Below, one piece after another: positions 40,183 through 61,275 of a stretch of 64,000 bases of DNA. This stretch comes from Bryobacteraceae bacterium (GTDB taxonomy: Bacteria; Acidobacteriota; Terriglobia; Bryobacterales; Bryobacteraceae). Within the stretch, counting starts at the first letter, position 1; every line of letters starts with the position of its first letter. A program made the translations under genes and the position numbers. Under the pieces are notes generated by a model. The model saw nothing but the letters and a program-made list of their open reading frames with translations, was not told the origin of the DNA and did no database searches. The stretch spans positions 7,520-71,519 of the forward strand of contig JBPCKZ010000152.1 of the NCBI GenBank assembly GCA_051003795.1, given 5' to 3'.

Positions 40183-40572
40183 TTGCTTCGCATCGCCTAC
40201 AGCATAGAATTCCTGATCGCGATCATCGCCATCTTCACATTTTGGAGCGAGGTCGGCGGCCAAGGGCATCTCGATCTGATGGCGTGGTATTGGAAGCTTG
40301 GTTTTTCGCTTGCCGCCGCCGCGGTTTGCCTCAAACTCACCGCCGCGACGCTCGAGAAGCAGAGCGTCTGGTCGAAATCCGCGCTCCGCTGGCTGCTGGC
40401 GCTTGTGCTCTTAGCCGCCGGAGCCGGCGCCGTGACTTATTTTTATCATCTCAACGAACCGGCGGATACCGACGATAGCGAGGCAATCTATTCGTCGAGT
40501 TGGCGCGCCATCGAGTCGCAAGCGACCTCGATACATGGCGATTTTGTGGTAGTGGTTCATTTTGAAATTTGA
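40183..40572 (+). CDS. hypothetical membrane protein whose last ~8 codons come from an inserted element
   Basis: Three or four hydrophobic helices. TTG start. The 8-bp duplication (40540-40547) and left terminal repeat (40548-40564) lie inside its 3' end. Confidence 0.4.
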   Translation: MLRIAYSIEFLIAIIAIFTFWSEVGGQGHLDLMAWYWKLGFSLAAAAVCLKLTAATLEKQSVWSKSALRWLLALVLLAAGAGAVTYFYHLNEPADTDDSEAIYSSSWRAIESQATSIHGDFVVVVHFEI

Positions 40573-40604
40573 CACTTAAGTACCGAATTGGTAACTAAAT
40601 ACAA

Positions 40605-40698
40605 CGCCGTTAGTGAGGAATAATCCACCGCAGATCCCCGCCGGGCCACTTCGGGCGGGCGTGTCATCTGGACTGAATCGGCGAACAGAAGCCGACTT
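40605..40698 (+). repeat. 94-nt subterminal block (L-type end), copy 1
   Basis: About 91% identical by eye to the reverse complement of 49709-49801 (cgccgttag...ccccgccgg.ccac.tcggg...catctggactgaatcggcgaacagaagccgactt). Confidence 0.85.
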
Positions 40699-41029
40699 AT
40701 CGTTCCTAATCCGACCGACGTGGTCGAACGCTGCTTCTGGATTGTGACTGTCATAATCACGGAATGCCGGTTACACGACCAACTGCACCGCGTGATGCTC
40801 AGCAAACCCACACACCTATAGCACGCGGACCTCTCCCTCGGCGTTGTTGTTGGTGCGGAACGATGAAAATCGGAGAAGCAGTACTCTGTTGTATCTATAC
40901 TGATATTTGATCCCTGAGGCAAAGATTTTAGAGGTGGAAGCGTCTCGACACGAAATGCAAATCATCGATATCGACAAAGAGCGCAGGAAATGTTAGCTTT
41001 CGCTGCTGTCCGGAGGATCGCTACTGCGG

Positions 41030-41596
41030 TCAACGCCTGAGGACCTTAAGCGGCAGACTGAGTCCCTTCGCCTTGCAGGCAATCTCCCCTTCCTTAACCG
41101 CGAAATCGTACGGCTTGCCTGCAGCGATGGCATCGTAGAAGCCCTCTGCAAACTGAATTGCGGCGACGTCATCGATAGCCGCTTCCATCCCAATAGTCAA
41201 ATCCGCCAGTGGTTCGGTGCGGGCTGCCAGTGAACTGCAAGCGTTGAGAATCACGCATTTTATGGATGGGTGGTGGGCGACGAGCGAGGATATGGCGTCG
41301 ATCGGTGAAACGGCGATTTTGCCGGACGCGTCTTCAAACAGCAGTGAATCGAAGTCGCCGTGCCCGGAGAAATGAAGTATTTCGTAACCGTCATCCAGCA
41401 GGGCGTGCCGAACATCATCAACGGTTGTGGCGTGTCGCACTTCAAGAGAGACGCAGTCTCGCGCCTTCCCGCGCTGAAGGGCGTGGCGGATAGCGCGATC
41501 CTCTTGTGTAAGCCGCAAGTTGCCGGTTCCTTCAGGGTTCGCGAAAACGACGATGACTCGTATTTTAGGAATCGCCGCGCGGGCGACATTCTCTCT
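41030..41596 (-). CDS. CHAT/caspase-like protease domain (C-terminal part of a frameshifted gene)
   Basis: ILHFSGHG (His) and VILNACSS (Cys) dyad. The frame is open upstream of the annotated TTG back to TGA 41597-41599 and reads PKIRVIVVFANPEGTGNLRLTQEDRAIRHAL, the usual CHAT N-terminal strand, with no start codon of its own. Confidence 0.7.
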   Translation of the reverse strand, partial: RENVARAAIPKIRVIVVFANPEGTGNLRLTQEDRAIRHALQRGKARDCVSLEVRHATTVDDVRHALLDDGYEILHFSGHGDFDSLLFEDASGKIAVSPIDAISSLVAHHPSIKCVILNACSSLAARTEPLADLTIGMEAAIDDVAAIQFAEGFYDAIAAGKPYDFAVKEGEIACKAKGLSLPLKVLRR

Positions 41597-42729
41597 TCAA
41601 GGCTTTGGCCGGACGTGCCCGCCTCGATTTTCAAATCTTCTGGAAGCCGCTCGACGATTCTGCGGACGGATAACACCAGTTCTTCCAATTGTCCCTGCGG
41701 GCGCTTACTTCCCGCGTAAGTCGCCCCGGCGCCAATCTGAATGGCGGCGCTGCGAAGGCTCTGGGCGGTCGTAGCGTCGGTGCGACCTACTACGTCGGCG
41801 ATTCGGAGACATAGCAGGATGAGGGCTTTATTCGTGTCGCCACGGTCAAACGGAAAACGATCAATGAGACCGGAATATCCACCAAGTCTCTCGAGGACTT
41901 GGGAAGATATTTCCAGCGACTCCCGGCTGAAGGTTTCGTGGTCCATCCGAAAGAGTTGCTCTACCCCCTCGATGTCGAGTTCCTTCGCCATGCGGCCGAC
42001 CGTCGCCTCAGGAACCAACGGGCATACGCAAAGTACATGCCCACACTGTACGCACAAGCCGGGATAACGCTTAATCAGTTCGTCCTCAAGCGAAAAAGGC
42101 GTGTCGGTTTGCTGCTGCGCCATAAGTTCATGCTCGTTGGCAAGGCCCATCAGATACGAGAAAACATCGGACGCCTCACCGGCAAAGTATTTGGGATATC
42201 GATCAAAGACGCGGACTGCTTCGGCCAGCTCGCCAAGTTCTTCGAATAATCCTGTGACGCTGCGCCCGGAGCGTGCGTCGTCAATCGAACGCGGGTAGAT
42301 ATCGGAAAACATTCGCTGCCACCCGTTCAGTGATTTGGGCCTCAGCAAAACGTTCGATTCCTTCGCCCGTTTGAGTGCCGCGTGATCGACCGTCTTGCTC
42401 GTCCCACGGGTGGTTTTGCATGGCAGGTCCTGATGGGGCTTCAGCCTGCAGTACGGACATACGTAGGGGTACTTCCGAAATACGAGTTCCTCAACGCTCG
42501 AAACGCGAAACTTGGCCATCAGGGGGAAAAACCATCCGAGGGCTTTGCAAAGAGCATCCAAAAAACTGAACCCTTCGCGTTTCTTATTCCGGGAGTGCAC
42601 GGTAAGCATTCCGCATACTTCTACGAAGTGCGTGAACGTTGCTGCCGCAGGCCGGTGAGCGTTCTGCTCACTGTACGTGTGGGCGATCATCTTATAAAAA
42701 TCGTCGAGCCTCAGTGGCGTGTCGCTCAT
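41589..42729 (-). CDS. tandem MazG-like nucleotide-pyrophosphohydrolase-type domains (N-terminal part of the frameshifted gene)
   Basis: LFEELGELAEAVR ... EASDVFSYLMGLANEH ... KRYPGLCVQCGHVLCVCP is a MazG-like core with a terminal Cys cluster. A degenerate first copy precedes it (FVEVCGML ... RKYPYVCPYCRLKPHQDLPC). Start at ATG 42729 (MSDTPLRL). The ORF tail beyond ~41590 is out of frame over the CHAT part. Confidence 0.65.
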
Positions 42730-42887
42730 GATGTGTCGCTCAATGATCGTTCGCTTGATGTATTGGACCACACGCCGGAATGACACCCACCCGGCCGACG
42801 GGGTCTAGACCCTCAGATTAGCGATCTGGTCGGGAGGTCTTTGACCTGACCGTGGGGGATCTCGCCGGGTTAGTAATGATAAACGCG

Positions 42888-43021
42888 CTTCCGTTCGCCT
42901 AACGGCCAGGATCGTCGGCAATCCGGAAGTGGGCCGCATTCCCGAATTAACACATAGGTCCTCCCTTGTCGCCCAGCGTTTACCGAACATCTCGCTCGAC
43001 GATTCAAACTGACCCACTACC
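42888..43021 (-). repeat. 134-nt terminal block (A-type end: TIR plus conserved leader), copy 1
   Basis: About 90% identical by eye to 47555-47688 in inverted orientation. Lies directly upstream of, and in the same direction as, the cargo gene. Confidence 0.9.
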
Positions 43022-43049
43022 GATTTTGTAGTCCTGAAACCTAAATGCA

Positions 43050-44783
43050 TTAACTCGCCAACTCGAGCTCAATCCTTTTCTTATCCGCGTCCAGCCTCGC
43101 GATCCGGAAACTCCTGATCTGCCCGGCCCTCGCCGGCTCTTTCTTCACCGGGGCCGACAAGTCGCTCTGCCCCTGCTTCCACTTATTCGCCAGCATCGAA
43201 CTCAACGACGAAACGTCGGCCCGCGCGCCGGCGGCCTGTTTCTCTTCCCGATTCTCGCCGGCAATGTTGCACGAAGCCCGCACGCCTTCGCCCAACTCCA
43301 CTGTTGCCTTCCCGCGTGAAACGTCCGACACCCGCCCCGTCACCATGTCGCCTTCTTTATGCTCGGCGATGTACTCGTCGACCGACGTCGGCTGTAGTTG
43401 CTTCAATCCCAGCCGTAGCCGCCGCTTCGCGCGATCCATCTCCAGCACAACCGCCCGGACCTGCTGTCCCGCCTTCAGCACGTCCTGCGGATGCTCGACC
43501 CGCTTCTCCGCGCTGATGTCGCCGACGTGGATCATCCCCTCGACGTTTTCGCCCAATTGCACGAACGCCCCGAACTTCGTGAGACTCGTGACCGGCCCTT
43601 CGACAATCGTGCCCGGCTGATATTGTTTCTCCGCTTCCGCCCACGGATCTCCGAGCGTCTGCTTCAACCCTAAAGCAATCCGGTGTTCCGCCGGATTCAC
43701 GCCCAACACAACCACTTCCACCGCGTCGCCGGGCTTCAGCACGTCGCTCGGCTTCCGCACTTTTTTCGACCACGACATTTCGGACAGATGAACCAGCCCA
43801 TCGAGCCCCGGCTCGAGTTCGACGAACGCACCGAAATCCGCGACCCGCGAAACCGTTCCCTTCACGCGGTCGCCCACGTGGAATTTTTCCGCTACCTGGG
43901 TCCACGGGTCCGGCTGAAGCTGTTTCATTCCGAGCGCAACCCGCCGCTTGTTCGGATCGATCTTCAGAATCCGGACGTCCACCTGCTGCCCGACGGTCAA
44001 AACATCGGCGGGCTTCCCGATGCGCCCCCACGAAATCTCGCCGACATGCAGCATCCCATCGATGCCGCCGATATCGACGAACGCGCCGTAATCCATGAGG
44101 CTCCGCACCGTGCCCCGCACCTCCATGCCTTCGCGCAAATCGGTGAAGCGCTGCTCGCGGGAATGCTTCTCTTCTTCTTCCAGGACCACGCGCCGGTCGA
44201 CCACCACGTCTTCATCGGCCACATCGAGCTTGATGATCCGGCAGCTGATTTCCTGCCCCACCAGCGCCTGCAGCTCGGCCGCGTCTTTCGTGCCGCTGCG
44301 CGAACCGGGCATGAACGCGCGCACGCCCACATCCACCGTGACGCCGCCCTTGATCAATCCCGCGACCACTCCGGCGATGGCCCGCTTTTCCGCGAACGCC
44401 TGTTCCAACGAAGACCAGTCCTTCGGCCGCGCCACTTTAATCAAAGAAAGCTGATAATAACCCTCCGGATCGCGCCCCGTGATCGCCGCCTGCATCTTGT
44501 CGCCCTGCTTGAGGGTCAAATTTCCCGCCGGATCGCGGAAGCCTTCAACCGGCATGATGCCCTCGGTCTTCAGCCCGACATCGAGGAAAACCGACTCGCC
44601 CGAAATCGCGACCACGGTTGCTTCCCGCCCTTCCGTCCCGCCCCCCGGGGCGTTCGTGCGCGTGCCGTGCGACCGCTCGTATTGGCTCAGGATGTCGCCG
44701 AAGGAGGTATCGGCTTCAGACGGAGTTGGGGCTTCGAGGTCGCGCGTTTCCGAGTCGCGACCCAGGGAGTTGTGATTGGCCAT
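43050..44783 (-). CDS. rpsA: 30S ribosomal protein S1
   Basis: Six S1 repeats (e.g. GTVRSLMDYGAFVDIG, GTVSRVADFGAFVEL, GPVTSLTKFGAFVQLG). Start at ATG 44783 (MANHNSLG). The 97-codon upstream ORF extension is R/H-rich and implausible. Confidence 0.93.
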   Translation of the reverse strand: MANHNSLGRDSETRDLEAPTPSEADTSFGDILSQYERSHGTRTNAPGGGTEGREATVVAISGESVFLDVGLKTEGIMPVEGFRDPAGNLTLKQGDKMQAAITGRDPEGYYQLSLIKVARPKDWSSLEQAFAEKRAIAGVVAGLIKGGVTVDVGVRAFMPGSRSGTKDAAELQALVGQEISCRIIKLDVADEDVVVDRRVVLEEEEKHSREQRFTDLREGMEVRGTVRSLMDYGAFVDIGGIDGMLHVGEISWGRIGKPADVLTVGQQVDVRILKIDPNKRRVALGMKQLQPDPWTQVAEKFHVGDRVKGTVSRVADFGAFVELEPGLDGLVHLSEMSWSKKVRKPSDVLKPGDAVEVVVLGVNPAEHRIALGLKQTLGDPWAEAEKQYQPGTIVEGPVTSLTKFGAFVQLGENVEGMIHVGDISAEKRVEHPQDVLKAGQQVRAVVLEMDRAKRRLRLGLKQLQPTSVDEYIAEHKEGDMVTGRVSDVSRGKATVELGEGVRASCNIAGENREEKQAAGARADVSSLSSMLANKWKQGQSDLSAPVKKEPARAGQIRSFRIARLDADKKRIELELAS

Positions 44784-44819
44784 GGGGATTACATTTTTAT
44801 TTTTGCATAAGATGTCTCC

Positions 44820-46079
44820 GTGGATGCTCCGACCAACGCTTCGACCAACGCTTCGAGGAACGCGCTGAAGCCGCAGGACGCCGTGCTGGTGTTGTTGTTC
44901 ACGGCGATGGCGGCGCTGAACCCGACCCACGATCCGTGGGAGATCGGCATGATCGTGACGTTGGGCCTGCTGCAAATCGCCGAACCGAAAATCGCCGTCC
45001 TCGATTCGACGCACGGCCGGATTGTTTGGATACTGCTGAAGCTCGGCGTGGGTTACCTGTTGATCGGCCTCACGCACGGCCTGAATAGCGAATATTATCT
45101 GATCCTGTTGCTGCCCGTGATCTCGGCGGCCACCTATCTTGGGGTGTTCGGAACGCTTCTGTTCACGGTGCTCGCGTGCGGAGCGTACTTATCTTTCATC
45201 TTCTTCGTCGATTGGACGGAGTTTCATATCGATGCCGATCAATTGCGCGTCTTGACCTTGCGGCTGCTTTTCCTCGCCATAGCCGCGAACCTGGTCAATA
45301 CTCTCGCCGAGGCTCTGCGCGTTCAATACTCGAAGTACAAAAGCGTGGCGGAACAACTGGTCGAAGCCAATCGTCATCTCGGCGAAGCCGAAGCGGCGAT
45401 GCGCCGCTCGGAGCGCCTGGCCGCGCTCGGCCAACTCTCGGCGGGCCTCGCGCATGAGCTGCGCAATCCGCTCGGAACCATTCGCGCATCCGCTGAAATG
45501 CTCGCGCGCGGAGTTTCGCAAGAAAACGAGGTGGCCCGCGAAGTAGCGGGGTTCATCTCATCCGAAGTCGACCGCACCAACTCGCTGGTCACGCGCTTTC
45601 TCGATTTCGCGCGCCCGCTCCATCTCCGGCTCGCTCCGGCCGATCCCGCCCAGGCCATCGACCGCGCCGTCGAATTGATCGAGCGCGATCCCGCGAAGCA
45701 TCCCGTCACGATCTATCGCAACTACTCGCCGGACCTTCGTCCGTTTCCGATGGATGCCGAATTCATGGAGCGCGTTTTCTACAATCTGCTCTTGAACGCG
45801 GTTCAGGCGACCGCGCCGGGCGGCGCCGTGACCGTCAAGACCAGGGTAGTGAATCAAACGGCGGAAATCGCGGTGATCGATCGCGGCTCGGGTATCGCCC
45901 CCGCGATCAAGGAAACCATTTTCAATCCGTTCGTCACGACCAAACCCGAGGGTGTCGGCCTGGGGCTCGCCATCGTTTCGAAGATCGTCGATGAGCACGG
46001 CGGTAACATAACAGTCGAAAGCGAACCCGGCAAGGGCAGCGTGTTCCGCGTCCATCTCCCCATCCCGGAAACCGAATGA
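44820..46079 (+). CDS. membrane sensor histidine kinase
   Basis: Multi-TM N-terminus. H-box SAGLAHELRNPLGTI. N box LLLNAVQA. DRGSGI and GVGLGLAI G boxes. Confidence 0.85.
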   Translation: MDAPTNASTNASRNALKPQDAVLVLLFTAMAALNPTHDPWEIGMIVTLGLLQIAEPKIAVLDSTHGRIVWILLKLGVGYLLIGLTHGLNSEYYLILLLPVISAATYLGVFGTLLFTVLACGAYLSFIFFVDWTEFHIDADQLRVLTLRLLFLAIAANLVNTLAEALRVQYSKYKSVAEQLVEANRHLGEAEAAMRRSERLAALGQLSAGLAHELRNPLGTIRASAEMLARGVSQENEVAREVAGFISSEVDRTNSLVTRFLDFARPLHLRLAPADPAQAIDRAVELIERDPAKHPVTIYRNYSPDLRPFPMDAEFMERVFYNLLLNAVQATAPGGAVTVKTRVVNQTAEIAVIDRGSGIAPAIKETIFNPFVTTKPEGVGLGLAIVSKIVDEHGGNITVESEPGKGSVFRVHLPIPETE

Positions 46080-47419
46080 AATCGCGCATTCTGATCGTCG
46101 AGGACGAGGAAAAACTTTGCCGCGTGATCGAGCTGCAACTCGCGTCGGAAGGTTACGAAGTTGAGAAAGCCCGCTCGGCCGAAGAAGCTCTTTCCATGAT
46201 GGATCGCGCCGATCTCATCGTCACCGATCTGCGGCTTCCCAAGATGGACGGGCTGGAGCTGCTGGCGCTCGCCCGGCGCCAGAACGCGCGCGCTCCGGTG
46301 ATCGTGATGACCGCTTATGGCACGGTGGAGACTGCGGTGGAGGCCATGAAAACGGGCGCCGTCGATTTTCTGCTGAAGCCCTTTTCGCTCGATCACTTGA
46401 GCGCCGTGGTGCGTAAAGCGCTGGAGGTTCGCAATCTTCGCGATGAGAACCGCCAGTTGCGCGAAGAGCTTGGCCAGCGATACACCTTCGACAACATCGT
46501 CGGTCGGAGCGCCCCGATGCAGGAGATTTTTGCGACCGTGATGCGCGTGGCTCCCACGCGCGCGACGGTGCTGCTGGCGGGCGAGAGCGGCGTCGGCAAA
46601 GATATGATCGCGCGCGCGATCCATTTCCATTCGCCGCGCCGCGACCGCCCGCTGGTGAAGATCAATTGCACCGCGCTGCCGGAAAATCTGATGGAGAGCG
46701 AGCTGTTCGGCTATGAAAAAGGCGCGTTCACGGGCGCTAACGTCTCGAAACCCGGAAAGTTCGAGCAAGCCGACACCGGCACCGTGTTTCTCGACGAGAT
46801 CGGCGACGTGCCCGCGTCCGTTCAGGTGAAATTATTGCGCGTGCTGCAGGAACGCGAGTTGGAACGGCTGGGAAGCAACAAGACCAAGCACATCGATGTC
46901 CGCGTGATCGCGGCGACCAATCAGGATTTGCGCGCCGCCCTCGAGCAGGGCACGTTTCGCGAGGATCTTTATTACCGCCTGAATGTCGTTCCCATCGAGA
47001 TTCCGCCGTTGCGCGAGCGCAAGCAGGATATTCCGTTTCTGGCCGGGCATTTCGTGCAGAAACTGGCCGCCGATTCGGGCAGCCGCGTGGAGAAAATCAC
47101 GCAGCCCGCGATCGACAAGCTGCTGACATATCACTGGCCCGGTAACGTCCGCGAGCTCGAAAATGTTATCGAGCGCAGCCTGGTGATGTGTACCGGGCCG
47201 GAGCTGGACGCGGCGGATATCAAGCTCGACATCCCGCGGGCACGGCAAGGTTCGGGCGATCTATCGCTGCCGGAGGGGATGAGCCTCGATCAATACGAGC
47301 AGGAACTGATTCGCCAGGCTCTCAAGAAAGCGGATGGAAACAAGAGCCAGGCCGCGCGCCTGCTCGGCCTGACGCGAAACGCCCTTCGTTACCGCCTGAC
47401 CCAAATGGGCATTGAATAA
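46076..47419 (+). CDS. sigma-54-dependent Fis-family response regulator (NtrC class)
   Basis: REC domain (ILIVEDEE ... DLRLPKMDG). AAA+ module with GESGVGKD and GAFTGA. C-terminal HTH QAARLLGLTRNALRYRL. 4-nt overlap with the kinase gene. Confidence 0.92.
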   Translation: MKSRILIVEDEEKLCRVIELQLASEGYEVEKARSAEEALSMMDRADLIVTDLRLPKMDGLELLALARRQNARAPVIVMTAYGTVETAVEAMKTGAVDFLLKPFSLDHLSAVVRKALEVRNLRDENRQLREELGQRYTFDNIVGRSAPMQEIFATVMRVAPTRATVLLAGESGVGKDMIARAIHFHSPRRDRPLVKINCTALPENLMESELFGYEKGAFTGANVSKPGKFEQADTGTVFLDEIGDVPASVQVKLLRVLQERELERLGSNKTKHIDVRVIAATNQDLRAALEQGTFREDLYYRLNVVPIEIPPLRERKQDIPFLAGHFVQKLAADSGSRVEKITQPAIDKLLTYHWPGNVRELENVIERSLVMCTGPELDAADIKLDIPRARQGSGDLSLPEGMSLDQYEQELIRQALKKADGNKSQAARLLGLTRNALRYRLTQMGIE

Positions 47420-47452
47420 CATTTGTTTGTGGCGCGGACACTCGTGTCTGCC

Positions 47453-47483
47453 GTGTCCACACTCGTGTGGACACAAGTTTTTT
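47453..47483 (+). terminator. rho-independent terminator of the response-regulator gene
   Basis: gtgtccaca-ctcg-tgtggacac (9-bp stem, 4-nt loop) followed by aagtttttt, 34 nt after the stop codon. Confidence 0.75.
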
Positions 47484-47554
47484 GCCACACGAGCCCGCGC
47501 CACAATTCCGGCTCAAGTTCAATTCTGAACGTCCGGTTTTTTGTATCACAATTC

Positions 47555-47688
47555 GGTAGTGGTCAGTTTGAATCGCCAAGCGAGATGTTCGGCAAACGCT
47601 GCGCGACAAGGGATGATCCTATGTGCTAATTCCGGAATGCGGCCACTTCCGGATTGCTGACGAATCCTGGCCATTAGGCGAACGGAAG
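47555..47688 (+). repeat. 134-nt terminal block (A-type end), copy 2
   Basis: See 42888-43021. Contains a perfect hairpin TCCGGAA-tgcggccac-TTCCGGA (47631-47653). Confidence 0.9.
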
Positions 47689-47954
47689 GGCCGATGCCCC
47701 ACTTGTAGCGTAACTTCGTGTAACCCACGGACCGGCTCCAAACAATAACCGTTCTCGTCATCTTCGCTGGACGCGATAGTAGCCCATGCGGACACGCCCA
47801 GATCGAGTGGCTCTAATGTCTCGCTGAGATTATTTATGGTTTTCGAGAGTTCCCAGGCGGCAGAGTGCAGTTCAGGGGAAATAGACTTGAGTTCTTTGAA
47901 TGATGTGGCGATCCGCTCTGTCGGAGGAACCTGAGGGACCTTCGGTTTAGGCAT
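47619..47954 (-). CDS. hypothetical small protein (divergent from the HEPN gene)
   Basis: ATG 47954 is preceded by AGGAG at a good spacing. 111 codons. The 3' third runs into the conserved terminal block, so the true end is uncertain. Confidence 0.35.
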   Translation of the reverse strand: MPKPKVPQVPPTERIATSFKELKSISPELHSAAWELSKTINNLSETLEPLDLGVSAWATIASSEDDENGYCLEPVRGLHEVTLQVGHRPFRSPNGQDSSAIRKWPHSGIST

Positions 47955-48136: not shown

Positions 48137-48850
48137 GTGAAAGTCATGGTTCCGAGCGGCCCACCGCCCATGACCGAGGCGGAATACTGGCGCGATTACG
48201 ACATCATCCGCAATGACGTGAATGCGGCCATGGTCAGCTGCTACACACATCGCGCCATCAACGACATATCCGTGTCAGATCAGAAAATCTACCAGAGACT
48301 CAATCGGCATCCGGACTTCTGGCGGGTTACGTCATTCAGCCTACAGAACGGTCTGTTCATAGTGCTGGCGCGCATTTTGGATTCGGACCCCAAACTGCAT
48401 TCGATCTATCAGGTCTTGAACGCGACAACCGCGCATCCGGAGTTCTTCAATAAGGCTGCACTGCGAGCACGAAAACTCAGCATTCCGGGCATCCCGCCGA
48501 ATCCACCGTGGCTGGACGAGTATGTTCAGAACGCCTGGGAACCAACCGTGCAGGACCTGCGCGCACTGAAGAAGGCCCTCGCTCCGCACAAGACGAAGTT
48601 CGACGACATCTACAAGCCGGTCCGCAACCAGATCGCCCATATCATTTTCAAAGACAAGCAGTCCATCTCGTCCCTTTACGGCAGAACGCTAAGAACAGAC
48701 ATTGATGAGATCCTCCGTTTTCTTCATAGTCTTGTGCGCGCGATCTGGGAGATGGCCCACAATGCCGCGCAACCGGATCTCAGGGGCGACAATTACGGAC
48801 GCCGATCGGGTGGCGGAAATCACGAAGGAGACACACGAGCTACTCCTTGA
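48137..48850 (+). CDS. AbiU2-like HEPN-domain protein (abortive-infection type)
   Basis: RNQIAH (R-x4-H HEPN motif) within YKPVRNQIAHIIF. Helical N-terminal region with LFIVLARILDSDPKLHSIY, as in Abi-type HEPN families. The 3' end may be frameshifted (see findings). Confidence 0.5.
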   Translation: MKVMVPSGPPPMTEAEYWRDYDIIRNDVNAAMVSCYTHRAINDISVSDQKIYQRLNRHPDFWRVTSFSLQNGLFIVLARILDSDPKLHSIYQVLNATTAHPEFFNKAALRARKLSIPGIPPNPPWLDEYVQNAWEPTVQDLRALKKALAPHKTKFDDIYKPVRNQIAHIIFKDKQSISSLYGRTLRTDIDEILRFLHSLVRAIWEMAHNAAQPDLRGDNYGRRSGGGNHEGDTRATP

Positions 48851-49708: not shown

Positions 49709-49801
49709 AAGTCGGCTTCTGTTCGCCGATTCAGTCCAGATGACGCGCCAACCCGATGTGGCCGGCGGGGATCTGCGGCGCATTATTCCTCTCTAACGGC
49801 G
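49709..49801 (-). repeat. 93-nt subterminal block (L-type end), copy 2
   Basis: Reverse complement matches 40605-40698 with about 8 differences. Confidence 0.85.
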
Positions 49802-50241
49802 AAGCATAGATCTGGTGATGCCTGCCGCTTGACTCTACGAAACGCACTAGGCGGGAGTTGAGCGCGGGGCGTCTCGATAACGCCAAGGATCGACTGAGAC
49901 GCCTGCTTTGTTTACATCGCATGCGCGACGAGAACCGGCCCTTCTGATAGACTCCTACTTTCATGGCGCGCCTCGCTCACGAGCCTTGACCTGTCGCACA
50001 CACGCACCTAGTCTAGGCCGGAAGAGCTTTCTATCCGGCGGAACCCACTCTCCGTCCGGGTTCAAGTTCGAATAAGCGGCTCGAATATACTTGAGTAGGC
50101 TCAGCGACATGGGAATCCTCTGTTTTCTCCGCTCCCATATTACCGCGCGGCGACGTCGAAAGCCGTTCTCGCCGCCGCCGGACATCAACACCCTACACGC
50201 TTTCCGGAAGCGAACCGTCTAATATTCCGAAAGGAGAACCC

Positions 50242-51228
50242 ATGGGCAAACTTGCGATTGCCGTTTGTTTCGCTTCCGCGGCGTTCGGGCAGAATGTCGA
50301 CCGCGTTTTTCATCCGACAACCGCGATGTCCGCGCAGACATGGCAGGAGATTGCCACCACGATACGAACGGTGGCCCAAATTCAACAACTGTCGCTAGAC
50401 CTTCCGGGCGCAACACTGACCGTGAAAGGGACACCCGATCAGATGGCGCTCGCCGAGTGGCTGGTTCCTAAACTGGATGAGGCGGCGGGCTCGAATCCAG
50501 GCCCGAGGGACTACTGGGTGTCTCGAAATAGCGACGATGTCGTGTTGGTATTTGAGTTGGCTCATACCTCTACCCCTCAGGGCGCTCAGGAGATAATCAC
50601 GTCGCTTCGAACTATTGCGGATATCCAAAAGATCTTCCTGGTAACCGCGCACGGGATAATGGCGCTGCGGGGCAATGCGAGCCAGATTGCGTTAGCCCGA
50701 TTTTTGCTTCCGGAATTGGATCAGGCGCCGGTAGTGGCGCGACAGAGCGCCCTGGTGCACGTGTTTACGATGACTGGCGGCGGCAATGACACAGTGTTGG
50801 TGTATGGCCTGACCCACACGGATACCCCACGGGATTTTCAGGAGATTATCACAAATCTGCGCACGGTGCTGAGTATCCAGAGGATTTTTCAGGTCACCGC
50901 GCCGAAGTTGCTGGCGCTACGGGCCAGTGCAAGCGAGGTACAGATGTCCGAATGGCTAATTCCCGAATTGGACCGCCAGACCGCGAACGCCGGCGGGAAT
51001 GAGGCGCGAGTGCCTGGGGGCGACGACGATGTAGTGCATGTTTTCTACTTATCGCATTTGACGACCGCGGAAGGCATGAATGGCGTTATGCGCGAGATGC
51101 GCGCCACGGCGCACATCTCGAGGGCATTCGTGCGCACGTCACCGGCGGCGTTGGTGTTGCGAGGGACCGCGGACCAGATTGCGATGGCGGGGCGCATGAT
51201 CGAGTTGAGCGACCATGCGGCTCCCTAA
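50242..51228 (+). CDS. secreted protein made of four tandem ~80-aa repeats (secretin-N-like guess)
   Basis: Signal peptide. Four units of pattern V.V..L.H..TP...QEIIT.LRT...IQ.IF.V.....L.LRG.A.QI.....L.PELD. Confidence 0.7.
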   Translation: MGKLAIAVCFASAAFGQNVDRVFHPTTAMSAQTWQEIATTIRTVAQIQQLSLDLPGATLTVKGTPDQMALAEWLVPKLDEAAGSNPGPRDYWVSRNSDDVVLVFELAHTSTPQGAQEIITSLRTIADIQKIFLVTAHGIMALRGNASQIALARFLLPELDQAPVVARQSALVHVFTMTGGGNDTVLVYGLTHTDTPRDFQEIITNLRTVLSIQRIFQVTAPKLLALRASASEVQMSEWLIPELDRQTANAGGNEARVPGGDDDVVHVFYLSHLTTAEGMNGVMREMRATAHISRAFVRTSPAALVLRGTADQIAMAGRMIELSDHAAP

Positions 51229-51242
51229 ATCGCCGCATTCGG

Positions 51243-51644
51243 CTAGGCCGGAAGAGCTTGTCTATCCGGCGGAACCCACTCTCTTTTCGCCCGATCGCAA
51301 GTTAACAATTCCGGTGTCCAGAATCGATGCAACAGCGAACTGTTTAAGCGAGACTCATTCTCGGACAGGAACTCGGCAAAACTCGATTCGCGATGCGTGG
51401 AAATCAGTCGAACCCAAGCGAGCGTAACCGTCTCGTTGTAGATGTCGGCGACGCCGTGCCGCTCGGCAAAACGCTCGATCCCGGATCGCACGAGCCGTTC
51501 GGCGTTTTCTAGCGACGTTTGGCGCAAGTAAAGCCACGCGAGCCGAAGATGATCGGCATGCCGGAACTGCGAAGGATGCAGTGCCGCCGAATCCACCGCG
51601 GCTAAGAACTCTTCATCGCTTAATTCGGACGATCCGGCGCGCAT
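51243..51644 (-). CDS. hypothetical protein
   Basis: 133-codon ORF abutting the deacetylase gene. A truncated copy of its C-terminal coding end (EWVPPDR) lies at ~50013-50110. Confidence 0.55.
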   Translation of the reverse strand: MRAGSSELSDEEFLAAVDSAALHPSQFRHADHLRLAWLYLRQTSLENAERLVRSGIERFAERHGVADIYNETVTLAWVRLISTHRESSFAEFLSENESRLNSSLLHRFWTPELLTCDRAKREWVPPDRQALPA

Positions 51645-54176: not shown

Positions 54177-54180
54177 CGGA

Positions 54181-54729
54181 TTACGCCAGATTCAAAACCT
54201 GCTTGAGCGTACCCGCTTCCTGCTGGATCTTGCCTTGCAGTTGCATGATCGCGTAAATCAACTGCTCGGGCCGCGGCGGGCATCCAGGCACGTAAACATC
54301 CACTGGAATCGCCTGATTCACGGGAACGAGCGCGTAGTTGTTGAAGACGCCGGTCGAGGTCGCGCAAGCGCCCATGGAGATAACCCACTTGGGTTCCGGC
54401 ATTTGCTGATAAAGATGACGGATCACCGGCGCCATCTTCTGCGATACGCGCCCGGCGATGATCATCAAATCGGATTGCCGGGGCGATCCGCGAAACACTT
54501 CCGCGCCAAAACGCGCAATGTCGAAACGCGACGCGCTCATCGACATCATCTCAATGGCGCAGCACGCGAGGCCGAACGACATGGGCCAGATCGAATTCTT
54601 GCGGCCCCAGTTGATCACGCTGCCGATCGTCGTCATCAGAATGCCTTCCTGCGCGGCGAGACGATCCACGCTCTCGTTATCGATTCGCGCGAAAAGGTCC
54701 GCCGGACCGCTCGCCATCGGGGTATCCAT
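54181..54729 (-). CDS. nuoB: NADH-quinone oxidoreductase subunit B-like protein (stand-alone)
   Basis: [18 protein letters not shown] and VPGCPPRPE cluster-N2 cysteine motifs. Start placed at ATG 54729 (MDTPMASG). Confidence 0.85.
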
Positions 54730-54796
54730 AATCTTAGTTTCGCATGAAATACGAGTTGAATTGACGTTGCTAGACTTGATGGTTACCCCATAGTTC

Positions 54797-56986
54797 ATGT
54801 CATTTGAAAACTACGATCAGGCACTTGATCGCGCGGCGGATCTCTGCGGAGTGGAGCCGCGATTTTGGGATATTTTTGGGCATCTCCATACGGCGTCGGT
54901 TCAGACCAAGCGGGCCATCGTCGAGGCGCTCGGCATGCCGGCCGCGACGAAAGAAGATCTCGAAAGCGCGATCGCCCAACGCGAGAAGGCGGAATTGACA
55001 CGCATTTTGCCGCCCTGCCTAGTGGTGGACCTAGGCGAGCTCCTACGGATTCCGGTGCAGTTGCCGGAGACTCACTCGAACGTTCTCGCGGCGTTCGAAA
55101 TCGCGCTCGAAGATGGTTCGCGCCTTCGCTTCGAAAAGATAATCGGCGCGCGCATGCAGGTCGAATTGGACGCCCGCTTGCCGCTCGGATACCATGAACT
55201 GTCCGTCAGTGTCGCCGGCTTGAATCCGGAGAGTATTTCGCTGATCGTTGCGCCGGAACGCGCATTTCTGCCGGAGTCTCTGGCGCATGGGAAGAAGGCC
55301 GCCGGCGTAGCCGTTTCGCTCTACGGCCTCCGCTCGGAATTGAACTGGGGCTGCGGCGACTTCCGCGATCTGCGCGATGCAATCGACTGGGTGGCGGAAA
55401 TCGGCGGCGATTTCGTGGCCCTCAATCCGCTGCATGCGATTCACAATCGCCGGCCCTACAACACCAGCCCGTATCTTCCCAACAGCGTTTTCTATCAAAA
55501 CTTGATTTATCTGGAGGTCCCGGCGATCGAGGAATTCGAACATTCCACCGAAGCCCGTAGAGTTTGGTTTTCGCCTGAAACGCAGGAAGAGGCGCGGCAA
55601 CTTCGCGAATCCGAATTCGTGGAATATGAGCGCGTGAATGCGCTAAAGTTGCGTTTTTTAAGATTGTTGTTCGCCGAGTTCCGCCGGGCCGGGCGGCCTC
55701 TTGAAAAACGGAACGATTTTGAAGATTACCGCCGGCGGGAGGGCGATTTGCTGTATCGATTCGCGACCTACTGCGCGTTGGATGAACATCTTCATGCCGC
55801 CGATCCGGATGTTTGGATCTGGCCCGATTGGCCCGCCGGTTATCAAGACCCGGATTCGCCGAAAACACGCGAATTTCAGCGGAAACACGCCGAGGCAATT
55901 CTGTTTCATCAGTACGTCCAATGGCAGATCGATATCCAGTTGAACGCGGCGCAGCAATACGCGCGCGCGAAGGGGCTTTCAATTGGTCTCTATCACGATC
56001 TGGCGTTGGCGACGGACCGCTGCGGTTCGGATCTTTGGGCGCATCGGCCCTTCTACGTGGCGGGTTGCCGCGTGGGCTCGCCGCCCGACGATTTTTCGCC
56101 GGCCGGTCAGGATTGGGCGTTCCCTCCACCCAACGCCGAGCGCCATCGCGCCACCGGATACCGGCTATTTAGGGAATCCATCCGCAAGTCCTGCCGGCAT
56201 GGCGGCGCTCTGCGCATCGATCACGTAATGCGGTTCTTCCGGCTCTACTGGATACCCGACGGATCGGACGCGACCGCCGGAGCTTACGTGCGCGACAGGT
56301 CGGAGGATCTGGTCCGAATCCTCGCTCTCGAGAGCTTTCGCAACCGCGTGGCGGTGGTTGGCGAGGATCTGGGCACCGTGGAACCGCACATCCGCGAAAC
56401 GCTCGCGCGCTTCGGCATATTGAGTTACCGCCTGTTCTATTTCGAGCGCGGGCCGCACGGCAGCTTCAAGCGTCCGGACGAATATCCGCATCAATCGCTT
56501 GTATCCTCGACCACCCACGACCTGCCCACGCTTGCCGGATTCTGGATTCACGAAGACATCGAAGCGCGCCGCCGGGCGGGTGTAGTGGACGATGCCGAAT
56601 ATCGCCGTCAAATTGCCAATCGTTTACAAGACAAGCAGAAAATGTTGGACGCGCTTTTCGATCGGCACTTACTCCCGAGTTACTTTCCGCGGACGGCGAT
56701 TCACGTCCCCGAGCTAACCGGCGAGTTACACAACGCGGTAATTGGATTTCTCGCTTCGACGCCTTCGATGTTGATGGTCGTTAATCAGGAGGATCTGACT
56801 AAGGAGACGCATCAGCAGAACCTGCCGGGAACGACTTCGCAATATCCCAACTGGAGCCGGAAGATGAGGTTTACGTTTGAGCAATTGAGGACGGAGCCGC
56901 TCGCGATGGGATCGATGCAGATGTTCCGGGACTGGATGCGGCGCACGGGGCGGGAATCGGAACGAATCGCGGCTAAGATGATCTAG
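54797..56986 (+). CDS. malQ: 4-alpha-glucanotransferase (amylomaltase, GH77)
   Basis: [54 protein letters not shown] blocks. Confidence 0.92.
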
Positions 56987-57222
56987 TGGCACACTCAGGG
57001 CGGTTCACCCGAATCACGATCAATCCGGCGGTCGCTACCGGAAAGGCGTGTATTCGCGACTTGCGTTTTCCCGTATCGCGATTATTGGGCCTGCTTGCCG
57101 CGGGGGAATCGCCGGAATCGATTCTGAAAGCGTATCCTTATTTGGAACTGGCGGACATTGAGGAAACGCTTCGCTACGCTGCGTTCCTGGCCGAGGATGA
57201 GACGGTGGAACTCGCTGGGTGA
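56986..57222 (+). CDS. DUF433-domain protein (antitoxin-like)
   Basis: ITINPAVATGKACIRDLRFPVSRLLGLLAAGESPESILKAYPYLELADIEETLRYAA is the typical DUF433 pattern. Confidence 0.8.
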   Translation: MAHSGRFTRITINPAVATGKACIRDLRFPVSRLLGLLAAGESPESILKAYPYLELADIEETLRYAAFLAEDETVELAG

Positions 57223-57439
57223 AGTTTCTCGTGGATGTGGCTCTGATTTTCCCCGGCTTCTGGCAGCACTGAATGGTGCGGGACCTGGACTCATTCTCCT
57301 CCGTGGTGGAAATTACAGTGAATTCGAAAGCATGAAGTGCGTACGCCGCGTGCTGGCGGCAATACCCGGCCAGGAACTGCGGAAATCCGTTGTAGTAGTT
57401 GACAGAGAAAAGATCAGACGGCGATGGCTTCCGATATAG
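57219..57439 (+). pseudogene. remnant of a DUF5615 (PIN-like, toxin-type) gene
   Basis: GTG 57219 (GTGA overlap with the DUF433 stop) gives VKFLVDVALIF...stop. A second frame continues PRLLAALNGAGPG...LILLRGGNYSE...VVVVDREKIRRRWLPI. The length is not a multiple of 3, and the middle acidic core is missing. Confidence 0.5.
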
Positions 57440-57999
57440 TGTGGGCGCTTAATGCATAATGGCTGATTTTAATTTCGTCGCACGGAACGCGAGACCGTTT
57501 TATTACCTACGCCTTCAGACAAGTTGTTCTCTTCGCGCTTCGGACGTTCGACAAAGTGCACCTGTGGATGAATTCGCGGTGTTCCGACACGTTTGGCCCA
57601 AAATGCGGTAGTGGGTCAGTTTGCGTGAGCCGCTTTCAGGATTGCCTGCCGCGCAAGTCGGCGGTTTGGGCGTTATACGTCCTTGTGAAGGGGATGCCAA
57701 CTCCACACTTGCCGACTTTCGGCGGTTTGAGGCGCACCTTGTGGCTACCTCGCAGGCAACCTCCCAGCGTCGGATTCAGGCTGATAACTTCCGGATCGCC
57801 GACCACCCAGACGGAACACTCGTCGCCCCTCGCGGCAAGCGGCCATCTCGATTCTCGAGACCGTGAACGCCGCGACCGTATGTTTCAAGACCTCCACGAC
57901 TTTGTCCGGGTCGCGCGCGGAACACCGCGCAGCCCACCGACGGTGGACTTCTGCGTTCCAAAAGGTGTGGCTTTCTTGAGATACTACGAATTCCGTCTT

Positions 58000-59517
58000 A
58001 TGAAGATGACCGCTGACAAACGCGCGATCGACAAAATCTTTCGTCGTCGGGATCGTTACGAGATTCCTGATTGGCAGCGACAGAAGGTATGGAACAAGAA
58101 GAAGAAGCAAGGCCTTATTGACTCCATCCTGCGGGGTTGGAAGCTTCCCAAGTTCTATTTCGTAAAAAGCTTGGACGAGAACTTTCTCGTGGAAGACGGC
58201 CAACAGCGGCTTACCGCGATTTTCGAGTTCTTCTCGGGGGACCTAGGCCTGAGCCAGGAATCTGTTGAGATCTTCGGTGGGACGTACTACAGCGAGTTGA
58301 AACGGAACGTAGCGGACGCATTCGATGACTTCGATATCGAGTTCGACGTGATCGAAGACGCGACGGATGAGGAACTCAAAGAGTTCTTCCAGCGACTCCA
58401 GGAAGGCATGCCCCTGACGGGGAGCGAGAAGCTCAACGCGGTACCCAGCAAGCTCCGCGATTTCTGCAAGGAAACTGCAGCGAAGCACCCGTTCTTCAAG
58501 GAGACCATTGCTGTGCCTGATACGCGGTACGCGCACTTCGATATTCTCGCGAAAGTGGTCACCGTCGAGATCGAGGGCCTCGACACGGGGTTACGGCTGG
58601 ATGACGTGAAAGCAGTTTTTGAGGCGAGCAAGAACTTCGCCACCACTTCGGCGGTGGCAAAGCGCATCAAGAACGCCTTGGATTTGCTCGCTACGGCGTT
58701 CAAGGGCAACGGCTCCATGCTGCGCACGAGAACGATAGTCCAATCGCTCATCACGCTCACCTGCAAGATCGTGAGCACCAAGAACTACGCGGGCCGTGAG
58801 GCCCTCCTTAAAGAGTTCTTTGAGAGCTTCATGACCGAGTTGGCCACACAGATTGACAAGGGGCAAGAAGCCACAGACAGCGACTACGTCCAATTTCAGA
58901 AATCCGTGAGCGCCAACGTCACCGGCGCTGCCCGGACGCGCCAAGAAATCCTCCTCCGGAAGCTTTTTACGATCGCCCCTGAACTCAGCGCGATCTTCGA
59001 CCCGAGCGTCATCGCCGAGAGTGGCGTGACGGGACGCATCACGGCAGTCTCAGATTCCATCAATCAGCTCATCGAGCAGATCAATAAAAGGCACGCTGCC
59101 GCGACCGGCGACGACTTACTCAAGGCGACAAACAAGACCGCCCCGGCACTGTTGCGCCTTCGCAAGACGGTCACGACCCGCGATGCTTACGGCACGTTCA
59201 TCGATGATCTCTACTTCCTCTTCCGGGAGGGACCTGGAACTCGCGTCGACCCGGCAACCTTGCCATCGTTCGTCCACATCAACGACCTACGGACGGACCT
59301 GCGCCACGACGTGGATCATGGGGACAAGGGCAAGATTCGCTCCAAGCGGAAAAAAGCGGGTACAACCTTCGCGCTCTATGCCGGCGAGGGAACGCCGGAC
59401 ACCATCGAACCAGCCAAGTACCCACTATTCCAAGCGAACATCCTCACCGCAACAGAAGGCGACCTTCGAGCGCTCCTCTCAAGGCCGACCCCAAACCAGG
59501 CCACGCCCACATCTTGA
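58000..59517 (+). CDS. DUF262 (ParB/Srx-like nuclease fold) protein with a C-terminal R-x4-H region
   Basis: IPDWQRQKVW, LIDSILRGWKLPKFYF, DGQQRLTAIFEFF and FFQRLQEGMPLTGSEKLNA are DUF262 blocks. Near the C-terminus, INDLRTDLRHDVDHG. Start at ATG 58000; the upstream ORF extension crosses the TIR and is junk. Confidence 0.8.
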   Translation: MKMTADKRAIDKIFRRRDRYEIPDWQRQKVWNKKKKQGLIDSILRGWKLPKFYFVKSLDENFLVEDGQQRLTAIFEFFSGDLGLSQESVEIFGGTYYSELKRNVADAFDDFDIEFDVIEDATDEELKEFFQRLQEGMPLTGSEKLNAVPSKLRDFCKETAAKHPFFKETIAVPDTRYAHFDILAKVVTVEIEGLDTGLRLDDVKAVFEASKNFATTSAVAKRIKNALDLLATAFKGNGSMLRTRTIVQSLITLTCKIVSTKNYAGREALLKEFFESFMTELATQIDKGQEATDSDYVQFQKSVSANVTGAARTRQEILLRKLFTIAPELSAIFDPSVIAESGVTGRITAVSDSINQLIEQINKRHAAATGDDLLKATNKTAPALLRLRKTVTTRDAYGTFIDDLYFLFREGPGTRVDPATLPSFVHINDLRTDLRHDVDHGDKGKIRSKRKKAGTTFALYAGEGTPDTIEPAKYPLFQANILTATEGDLRALLSRPTPNQATPTS

Positions 59518-59948
59518 TCACCCCACCAATCCTGAACCTTCAGTAGGTTCCCACGGGCGACCTGCGAAAGGACTGGCCGGGTCGGCGCTTCGATCTAGGA
59601 AAATCCTGCGTCGCAAGTACGAGGCCCACACCGCGCAGACGGACGCCGCCGAAGCGGAACTTTCTCGGGCGACTCGCTCTATGGCACGGATTGGCGCTAG
59701 CCCGCATTCGGAGCTTGCAAGCTTCAAGCCGTGGAGATTTATTTTTGTCGTCTCATCATTCTGGACGGTTAACGCGCTAACGTTCCTTCTGCCGTGGGCG
59801 CAATGTGTGGAGCAGCACGTCAGCGGAATGCCGATCCGGACAATATCGCAACGTGGCTTCTCAGAACGCCGAAACCGCTTGCCGTAAAATCATCGGTGCA
59901 GCGCTCAACGGAAGAACTCCCGACGATCTATGATCGACAAGGGCACGG

Positions 59949-61028
59949 ATGTCGTTGACCCAACGCGGGACAACGTCAAAGAACCGTTCAGCAAATGGAT
60001 CTGGAAAGCCGGCGCACATGCCAACACCCGAACAAATTATAAGGATAGACGCCAAAACGTTTCAGGACTCGTTGGGCGAACTGGCGGCAACGATGGTGCA
60101 GAAGGTATTCCGGGAGGGTCGTCAGCACATTGCGGGGCCACTGTATGTCGGCGAGGATATCGCCATGCTGATTAGGTACGGCGCGAGCGTATACAACCTG
60201 CTCAACTACTTGAACGCTGACGAACGCCGCAAGGAGGACTGCTACTGGTACGTCCGTTACGGCGTAACCGGAATGTCACTGGTGCGGTCGCTTATCGATT
60301 GCCTGTATAACGTCGTCGCGATTCTGGAGGACCCAGCTGAGAAGGCCCCGCAGTACCGGAAGAGCGGACTAAAGAAGACCTTGGACGACATCGACGAGGA
60401 TCTAAAACAGTACGCCGACCAGCAGGACCGGCAGGAATCCTTGCAGCAGCGGCGGAAGACGGTCGAGTTGCTGGTACAGGGGAGCGGCTTCACGATCGAC
60501 GAAGTGATGCAACTCAAGAAGCATGAGATGTGGCCCACCTTCGGCACGTACGTTAATACAATGCAGCCTGGCGGGGTACGGACGGAGATTCAGGAGTTTC
60601 TGAAGACGTTTGCGCACTTGGAATGGCGGCAATATTCCGCGCTCTCGCACGGCGCCTATGAAGCCTTCATTGGCACTCTGGGGATGGTGCCGGTTGGGGC
60701 GTACTACATGAACGACTTCCTCCCGCATGAAGTACGGGACAAGCTCGACGAGACGTACGACTTGTTTCTGTCGATGCATATCGGCCGCTCAGCAACAGTC
60801 TTGTTGTGCATGCTTACCGAAATTCAGGTTCATTGCGGTTTCGATGGCGCGAATATTAACGAGCGGATCTGTAAGGTTTGGGCTGCACTTTTGCCTGTAC
60901 CGGAGACCAAAGAGTTGTATGACGGGAGATATTCCGAGCTCATGAAGAATCGTGGAATCGAGAAGGCGAGGGAACTTACGGTACTCTCTATTTCCAGAGC
61001 GCCGAACCCGGTCGTTGAACCTAAGTAA
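59949..61028 (+). CDS. hypothetical protein, AbiV/DUF5677-like helical pattern (weak)
   Basis: MSLVRSLIDCLYNVVAILEDP and LEWRQYSALSHGAYEAF resemble the R..E...yl..dp and y..lS..H blocks of Abi-type HEPN-like families. The start could instead be ATG 60018. Confidence 0.45.
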   Translation: MSLTQRGTTSKNRSANGSGKPAHMPTPEQIIRIDAKTFQDSLGELAATMVQKVFREGRQHIAGPLYVGEDIAMLIRYGASVYNLLNYLNADERRKEDCYWYVRYGVTGMSLVRSLIDCLYNVVAILEDPAEKAPQYRKSGLKKTLDDIDEDLKQYADQQDRQESLQQRRKTVELLVQGSGFTIDEVMQLKKHEMWPTFGTYVNTMQPGGVRTEIQEFLKTFAHLEWRQYSALSHGAYEAFIGTLGMVPVGAYYMNDFLPHEVRDKLDETYDLFLSMHIGRSATVLLCMLTEIQVHCGFDGANINERICKVWAALLPVPETKELYDGRYSELMKNRGIEKARELTVLSISRAPNPVVEPK

Positions 61029-61275
61029 AGACTCCTGAGGCTAGCGGCCGACGCAACGATGCTTGAGTTTGTGGGCCAATCACGCGCGATCCGGAAGTTA
61101 AACGCTGGACAAATTCTGCTCAGATCCCGCCTGACGGCGTAGTGTTTACCGGGGCGGTGTCACTTGGCTCGTTTGTCGGCGAACCGTTGAAGTGCTCGTC
61201 TGCGCGGGCAAACTGACCCACTACCCAAAATGCAAACAACTCGATCCCGACGATAAGATCGGCTTGGCCTGAATC

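Follow-up and report, generated by a model that had tools for sequence, protein, structure and literature searches.

According to ISfinder, insertion sequences (IS) of the IS1 family share the outer repeat consensus GGnnnTG and do not need the insA/insB' frameshift to belong to the family, and IS1 has been reported to prefer targets with A/T-rich cores and G/C edges. MIC231 is a mobile insertion cassette derived from IS231 in Bacillus cereus. Two established categories (PMC3129680; PMC7986276) are the mobile insertion cassette and the transporter IS (tIS), an IS copy that carries passenger genes. We analysed a 64-kb stretch of the genome of a Bryobacteraceae bacterium (contig JBPCKZ010000152.1; hereafter the window), which holds three inserts, E1, E2 and E3, marked by a common 17-bp terminal repeat. 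A first-pass annotation of this DNA had not recognised the element; it is an IS1-family derivative, and the category to which it belongs has a name. We consider it probable (about 0.8) that E1, E2 and E3 are non-autonomous IS1-family derivatives, that is, mobile insertion cassettes, in which defence genes have replaced the transposase.

The window was scanned for the 17-mer GGTAGTGGGTCAGTTTG, allowing up to three mismatches. Four matches were found, at 40548 (plus strand, two mismatches), 43005 (minus), 57607 (plus) and 61209 (minus), against an expectation of 0.03, and none of 100 shuffled sequences gave four. A further copy, GGTAGTGGTCAGTTTG, in which 1 nt is deleted, is present at 47555-47570. 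The sharing of a terminal repeat by three inserts, as first proposed, is thus beyond chance. E1 (40548-43021, 2474 bp) and E3 (57607-61225, 3619 bp) are each bounded by inverted copies of the repeat and by a perfect 8-bp duplication, and because of these duplications we conclude that both were inserted by transposition. E2 starts at 47555 and has one terminal repeat only, which is damaged; since its homology to E1 runs no further than 49801 and is not followed by a terminal repeat, E2 is truncated, its opposite terminus having been lost. The outside flanks of all three inserts read as initially described, but true 8-bp direct duplications are present at E1 and E3 only, and these two are the only structurally intact copies. 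In all three inserts the cargo is read from one end, here called A-type, toward the other, called L-type. The features of the termini are as follows.

40540-40547, no strand: left target-site duplication of E1, GATTTTGT; same 8-mer at 43022-43029
40548-40564, plus strand: terminal inverted repeat of E1, L-type end, GGTAGTGGTTCATTTTG, two mismatches (pattern scan)
43005-43021, minus strand: terminal inverted repeat of E1, A-type end, perfect (pattern scan)
43022-43029, no strand: right target-site duplication of E1, GATTTTGT; same 8-mer at 40540-40547
47547-47554: outside flank of E2, CACAATTC
47555-47570, plus strand: terminal inverted repeat of E2, A-type end, 1-nt deletion, GGTAGTGGTCAGTTTG
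57599-57606, no strand: left target-site duplication of E3, CAAAATGC; same 8-mer at 61226-61233
57607-57623, plus strand: terminal inverted repeat of E3, A-type end, perfect (pattern scan)
61209-61225, minus strand: terminal inverted repeat of E3, L-type end, perfect (pattern scan)
61226-61233, no strand: right target-site duplication of E3, CAAAATGC; same 8-mer at 57599-57606

The 17-mer is not confined to this genome. An exact scan of one genome per species gave at least 120 loci, distributed over Acidobacteriota, Actinomycetota, Pseudomonadota (among them cultured Mesorhizobium and Methylorubrum), Planctomycetota, Gemmatimonadota, Bacteroidota, Chloroflexota and other phyla; a scan of IMG/VR contigs gave at least 120 further, together at least 240. 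The two bases that follow the repeat are AA in 45-59% of ends. Independent support, in the form of a paired repeat with a duplication, a transposase or a small accessory gene, was available for 55/120 and 66/120 of the loci listed, and an IS1-type transposase accompanies the 17-mer in 66 of the 240 pattern-scan loci listed (68 when two plasmid relatives are counted). The first-pass annotation had predicted an autonomous member with the same ends and a DDE transposase; such members were found, among them the loci L020 and L035, in which inverted repeat pairs 3-4 kb apart enclose a protein of 289-296 aa encoded by one uninterrupted open reading frame (ORF). The stop codon of the L020 transposase (TGA in CAAACTGACC) lies inside the terminal repeat. 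Another copy, of 3370 bp with perfect repeats, is present on the Mesorhizobium loti plasmid CP050295 (L122).

The transposase matched the Pfam family DDE_Tnp_IS1 (PF03400) with 35.5 bits, against a gathering score of 24.1, and was collinear with InsAB' of Escherichia coli IS1A through the helix-turn-helix (HTH) and the D, D and E blocks (E=1.5e-6); PGAP and JGI label its relatives "IS1 family transposase". Its best NCBIfam match was transpos_IS1, at 52-60 bits, which is below the equivalog cut-off of 100 and therefore points to a distant IS1 subgroup. The outer GGTAnTG of the repeat matches the right end of IS1A, GGTAATG (the other IS1A end reads GGTGATG...). The -1 frameshift between insA and insB' of classical IS1 is not seen in the relatives, which have the single ORF. 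Thus, the IS1-type outer repeat, duplications of 8-9 bp and an IS1-type DDE transposase linked to the ends all occur together, and sequence comparison assigns the 17-mer, as terminal inverted repeat, to a single-ORF insertion sequence of the IS1 family.

Many autonomous copies also carry, just inside one repeat, a gene for a basic protein of about 80 aa (MPxRSSKxxDF...NPAAVALGRLGGLKGGKARA...), named "histone H1" by PGAP (L020 3470-3721, L035 584-856, L122 3075-3284; 44 loci in total). The gene is preceded by a TTGAC-type promoter-like sequence, its product has no Pfam or NCBIfam match, and it is absent from E1-E3; it may encode an accessory or regulatory protein of the IS1 clade. A common layout of four genes, namely the small gene, a gene of about 160 aa, an XRE-HTH/M78 peptidase gene and the IS1 transposase gene, was seen at L020 584-3791, in a Bryobacteraceae metagenome-assembled genome (MAG), and at L122 2796-6165, on the alphaproteobacterial plasmid. 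The presence of one layout in both implies transfer of a whole cargo-carrying copy across phyla.

We then took a census of repeat pairs that covered 244 sequences. Duplications at other copies of the 17-mer, which the first-pass annotation had put forward as a check, were found for 63 pairs: they measure 8 bp in 56, 9 bp in four and 7 bp in three, with 53 of the 63 perfect. Elements that have a complete transposase start at 1.9 kb, which makes passenger DNA the rule in this IS1 clade, and copies of 3.0-4.8 kb contain the transposase together with cargo. About 14 elements of 0.6-3.6 kb have ORFs without a transposase, E1 and E3 being the largest clear cases. The cargo of the family comprises XRE-HTH/M78 peptidase pairs (PADLOC PD-Lambda-2_B), Fic, proteases of the ClpP/SDH type, proteasome-like hydrolases, SocA/Panacea, DNA methylases, type I restriction-modification subunits, a STAND ATPase, HNH, TnpB and nested IS elements. 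A transposase-less cargo element of 1.0 kb, unrelated in sequence to the window copies, is 95% identical in two MAGs, where its flanks are unrelated and its duplications differ; transposase-less members therefore occupy different sites in different genomes. One further element (L078 2604-3859, 1256 bp), which has the 17-bp repeats and a duplication of 8 bp, holds a TnpB/Cas12f-like gene only (OrfB_IS605 and TNB domains) and lacks the IS1 transposase.

Miniature elements of less than 700 bp (32-600 bp) account for 28 of the 63 pairs. The shortest, of 32-68 bp, consist of little beyond the two inverted repeats and still have 8-bp duplications (L092 657-688, L073 6589-6623 and L017 6760-6827), which suggests that the 17-bp repeat alone is sufficient for transposition. 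The abundance of these miniatures raises another way in which a gene could have come to lie between two repeats: two miniature elements or solo ends might have flanked it, their outer repeats then being used jointly as in a composite transposon. However, no inward-facing repeats with up to three mismatches are present inside E1, E2 or E3, and the A-type end is dissimilar to the L-type end, so that the two are not a single miniature element present twice. We rejected this model on the missing inner repeats and regard it as highly improbable.

As to the choice of target, in 77% of 133 ends a G or C adjoins the repeat; across the same ends, positions -7/-6 are A-rich and -3/-2 T-rich, resulting in a weak palindrome, S-A-A-N-N-T-T-S, and runs of A4 or T4 are about four-fold enriched at the targets (16% vs 4%). 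The targets of E1, E2 and E3 are consistent with this preference, and the gene of 695 aa next to E3 has at its 3' end a predicted terminator-like hairpin, directly downstream of which E3 lies in a T-rich tract. An oriented, CAAAAT-like target, as read earlier from the three flanks, is not what the larger set shows: because the preference is symmetrical, three sites cannot fix the orientation of insertion.

Neither tblastn of the window with the IS1-type transposase nor Pfam searches of the insert ORFs revealed a transposase or recombinase in E1, E2 or E3, in agreement with the first-pass annotation. Inside the terminal repeats, the inserts have subterminal regions with the following features.

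40595-40698, minus strand: L-type subterminal block of E1, including CCACTTCGGG; 89-93% identical to 49709-49801; nhmmer E=4e-15
42885-43004, minus strand: A-type subterminal region of E1, shared with E2, with ACTTCCGGAT at 42921-42930
47571-47691, plus strand: A-type subterminal region of E2, about 90% identical to that of E1, with ACTTCCGGAT at 47645-47654
49709-49801, plus strand: L-type block of E2, at the truncated end; homology to E1 ends at 49801 and no repeat follows
57785-57799, plus strand: subterminal motif of E3, TAACTTCCGGATCGC; inverted repeat of the motif at 61086-61100
61080-61150, plus strand: L-type block of E3, including the inverted motif at 61086-61100; nhmmer E=2e-17; 78% identical to L244 7744-7807

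The A-type ends of E1 and E2 have some 130-144 nt in common at about 90% identity (89.6% over 144 nt), close to the 134 nt first reported, and their L-type ends (40605-40698 and 49709-49801, about 94 nt) are 89-93% identical; the block of E3 is, as had been noticed, a more diverged homologue. ACTTCCGGAT was found in all three A-type ends (42921-42930, minus; 47645-47654 and 57787-57796, plus), as claimed, but it is not specific to them, because it also occurs, inverted, in the L-type end of E3 (61089-61098); the L-type end of E1 has the variant CCACTTCGGG at 40647-40655. The motif and the L-type block are restricted to the window elements, except that the block is also present in the locus L244: a motif scan and nhmmer with the block found neither in about 170-240 other ends bearing the 17-mer. 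L244 has a DUF262 gene 85% identical to that of E3, followed by an L-type block with 78% identity, and has no recognisable terminal repeat and no second cargo gene. A metagenome scan for further members of the sub-lineage with the E3/L244-type block gave only a chance match inside a methyltransferase gene, and three scans of viral contigs gave zero matches.

Other accounts of these ends were also considered. A structured RNA in the ends was rejected: Rfam gave no match at E values up to 0.1 over 40000-62000, and the L-type block shows no conserved secondary structure on either strand (about -2 kcal/mol). A transposase relic in the A-type leader was likewise discarded, as blastx against six transposases and five small proteins gave only a 7-residue match beside the repeat (E=42). 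The first 20-30 nt hint, weakly, that the A-type end could correspond to the 3' side of the transposase gene and the L-type end to the promoter side of the small gene. Scans of E1 and E3 for promoter and terminator consensus sequences were uninformative.

E1 and E2 are ~90% identical at both ends, yet only 9-10% of their total length is shared, and they are the sole pair in the census with common ends around unrelated cargo. Possibly, then, the repeats and the A- and L-type modules, with the inverted ACTTCCGGAT, form a docking scaffold into which a separate recombination process swaps defence genes. E3 and L244, which share a DUF262 gene and an L-type block while a whole gene between them differs, are in line with such a scheme, as are the sharp, gene-sized homology boundaries that the cargo genes show elsewhere. 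The homology of E2 to E1, moreover, breaks exactly after TAACGGCG and is followed by AAGCATAGATCTGG (window 49796-49818), which matches GTAACGGCGAAGCATCGATTTGG, upstream of the DUF262 gene of L244 (L244 5520-5545), in 20 of 23 bases. This junction could be a recombination breakpoint or a chance match, about 0.08 being expected by our own estimate, and the sample consists of three elements. The scheme is further weakened by the lack of a conserved fold or Rfam match in the L-type block, by the absence of a recombinase nearby and by the failure to find the block and motif in about 240 other loci with the 17-mer or in the further pattern scans; we regard it as very unlikely. That the IS1-derived frame of E1 and E2, and more distantly of E3, serves as a reusable vehicle, its interior being replaced one gene at a time by some recombination process, seems only slightly less doubtful. 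If it did, the frame would amount to a "defence-gene shuttle" served by a transposase in trans, similar to an integron cassette in function and built from an IS.

Returning to E1-E3 as IS1-family cassettes, the cargo genes are the following.

41030-42786, minus strand: cargo of E1, NTP-pyrophosphatase-like gene with C-terminal CHAT, frameshifted near 41520 (CHAT, Pfam, 41.2 bits)
48137-48850, plus strand: cargo of E2, HEPN_AbiU2-domain protein, 237 aa (PF18734, 35.3 bits, cut-off 26.8)
58000-59517, plus strand: first cargo gene of E3, DUF262/GmrSD_N protein, 505 aa from the ATG at 58000 (Pfam, 65.9 bits)
59949-61028, plus strand: second cargo gene of E3, 359-aa protein with no assigned function (weak, sub-threshold DUF5677 match only)

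The cargo of E1 appears as two overlapping ORFs, one of 508 aa (41260-42786) and one of 162 aa with the CHAT domain (41030-41518). Each of its homologues is one protein, about 565 aa long and with CHAT at the C-terminus, and only 75% of the window ORF aligns to them, and DNA homology continues without interruption across 41033-42731; it is therefore one gene broken by a frameshift. The same frameshift is present in an independent Logan contig with 100% identity. "MazG-like", the earlier name for this product, found no Pfam, NCBIfam or PDB sequence support in the window protein and rests on the JGI name of its homologues, "NTP pyrophosphatase (non-canonical NTP hydrolase)". Homologues of the N-terminal, NTP-pyrophosphatase-like part end in CHAT, in a PNP_UDP_1 nucleoside phosphorylase domain or in no recognised domain, and variable C-terminal domains of this kind are an effector architecture typical of defence proteins. 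The DUF262 protein of E3 matches PADLOC NsnA (1e-31) and has 1425 homologues. We found no support for the label "AbiV-like" given to the 359-aa protein beside it.

The first-pass annotation had described a different defence-type cargo in each insert. This stands as far as the CHAT, HEPN AbiU2 and DUF262 domains are concerned, with the reservations that the E1 gene is frameshifted and that such cargo is also widespread without these ends. Genes closely related to the DUF262 gene (69-93% identical at the protein level) and to the CHAT gene (about 80%) occur in other contexts without the repeats, often defence islands, with sharp homology boundaries of gene size; the cargo therefore circulates independently and was captured here. 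Many homologues of the E1 and E3 cargo lie on contigs of 2-4 kb, as expected for repeated or mobile DNA. From their sequences, the cargo genes of E1-E3 are predicted to function in defence.

If the three inserts are cassettes of this type, an IS1-type DDE transposase of about 290 aa, with an N-terminal HTH and a DDE core, would bind both repeats. It would be supplied by an autonomous copy that is located elsewhere in the genome or was formerly present, and insertion would proceed through a staggered cut of 8 bp where an A/T-rich core has G/C on either side, with target sites that would include the T-rich tract downstream of the terminator-like hairpin beside E3. E1, with one slightly degenerate repeat, and E3, with perfect repeats, look structurally competent for transposition, whereas E2, with one terminus lost, would be fixed in place. 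We infer that E1-E3 were mobilised in trans and that this genome has a helper copy.

Several observations weigh against this picture. No helper transposase was detected by tblastn within the 64 kb of the genome covered. The empty sites predicted to precede insertion, CATGGCGATTTTGTAGTCCTGAAACC for E1 and GTTTGGCCCAAAATGCAAACAACTCG for E3, were not recovered: exact-protein look-ups of the flanking genes gave nothing, or the same allele only, one of them leading to a contig 100% identical to the window with E1 already inside (the identical Logan contig, from reads SRR24198227, covers 40669-47454). With a frameshift in the E1 cargo and a truncated E2, no fewer than two of the three copies are in decay and not active shuttles. 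Of the single-end matches to the 17-mer, a minority may be spurious; by our arithmetic, which assumes uniform base composition, about 70 exact matches are expected by chance in 596 Gb. The L-type block may belong to the cargo and not to the transposon ends, because it adjoins the DUF262 gene in L244, where the repeats are missing. Lastly, the duplications prove transposition, not that the transposase was absent at the time.

The last point, that target duplications do not separate the two histories, leaves room for the inserts to have arrived as autonomous, passenger-carrying copies that later lost the transposase and the small accessory gene in place and at no time moved without a transposase of their own. 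In the census, most copies with cargo retain the transposase, partial transposases are seen in L048, L138, L158 and L226, and the damage to E2 and to the E1 cargo shows that decay is ongoing. Yet blastx of the ends of E1-E3 finds no remnant of a transposase beyond about 7 codons beside the repeat, the transposase would have to have been lost cleanly three times, independently, from elements with a common lineage-specific subterminal sequence, and transposase-less relatives are seen at different sites in different genomes. We therefore regard decay in place as unlikely and favour the view that E1-E3 are transposase-less cassettes. The finding as a whole, an IS1-family mobile insertion cassette carrying defence-type genes, is largely explained, with a small chance that a mechanism of cargo exchange is real.

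Two other features of the window were noted. A 40-nt direct repeat with one indel occurs at 50015-50052 and 51245-51283, 1231 bp apart, and brackets a gene of 328 aa (50242-51228) that has repeats and a weak Secretin_N match. The 40-nt repeat is the 3' end of a gene of 133 aa (51243-51644, minus strand), where it encodes ...EWVPPDR; the duplicated gene end would fit a separate insertion just beyond the truncated end of E2. In addition, G+C content drops to 0.50 at 3001-4000, compared with about 0.58 elsewhere, around an ORF of 176 aa (3346-3876, minus strand).

Our results tie the movement, on a small scale, of defence, toxin-antitoxin and restriction-modification genes to an IS1-family clade of soil bacteria that is abundant and crosses phyla. 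One IS1 clade yields miniature elements, transposase-bearing copies with cargo and transposase-less cargo cassettes; what is unusual is that E1 and E2 have unrelated cargo between the same ends. Should the cassettes be mobilised in trans, individual defence genes could reach intergenic sites between core genes with no need for the large islands or integrative elements commonly invoked. The 17-mer with its 8-bp duplication is also a simple marker for annotating such cassettes in MAGs, where they are now labelled as hypothetical genes.

Among known systems, two resemble the inserts only in part. MITEs, the miniature inverted-repeat transposable elements, are non-coding and under about 0.6 kb, and E1 (2474 bp) and E3 (3619 bp), which both contain genes, were not assigned to them. 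Like integron cassettes, the inserts are defence modules of one or two genes with a conserved sequence downstream of the gene and with differing cargo. They differ in having IS1-type inverted repeats and 8-bp duplications and in being scattered between core genes rather than arrayed. The L-type block lacks an attC-like fold and there is no integrase in or beside the three elements, so this assignment was rejected too; the ORFs of 75 aa or more examined in and around E1-E3 gave no integrase domain, the window as a whole not having been scanned for an integron integrase.

The autonomous relatives L020, L035, L025, L122 and others fit the tIS category and carry the same sort of cargo; a tIS, however, encodes its own transposase, which E1-E3 do not. 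With IS1 itself the clade shares the GGTAnTG repeat, duplications of 8-9 bp, an HTH and DDE transposase in the relatives and targets with an A/T-rich core and G/C edges. It differs in that the window copies are transposase-less, that the autonomous relatives measure 1.9-4.8 kb against 768 bp for IS1, and that these relatives routinely have passenger genes and the small basic "histone H1-like" gene at one end. The closest parallel is with mobile insertion cassettes. Repeats at both ends and a duplication are present in E1 and E3 and not in E2, and the interiors lack a transposase (tblastn, and blastx of the ends, were negative) and code for other proteins (CHAT, HEPN_AbiU2 and GmrSD_N). On every feature that could be checked, E1 and E3 are IS1-family mobile insertion cassettes, and E2 is a truncated one. 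As in MIC231, IS-type inverted repeats enclose genes other than a transposase, the duplication is like that of the parent IS, the cargo varies among related ends, and mobilisation in trans is presumed. Unlike MIC231, whose parent belongs to the IS4 family, the window cassettes derive from the IS1 family, and their cargo is of the defence and abortive-infection type.

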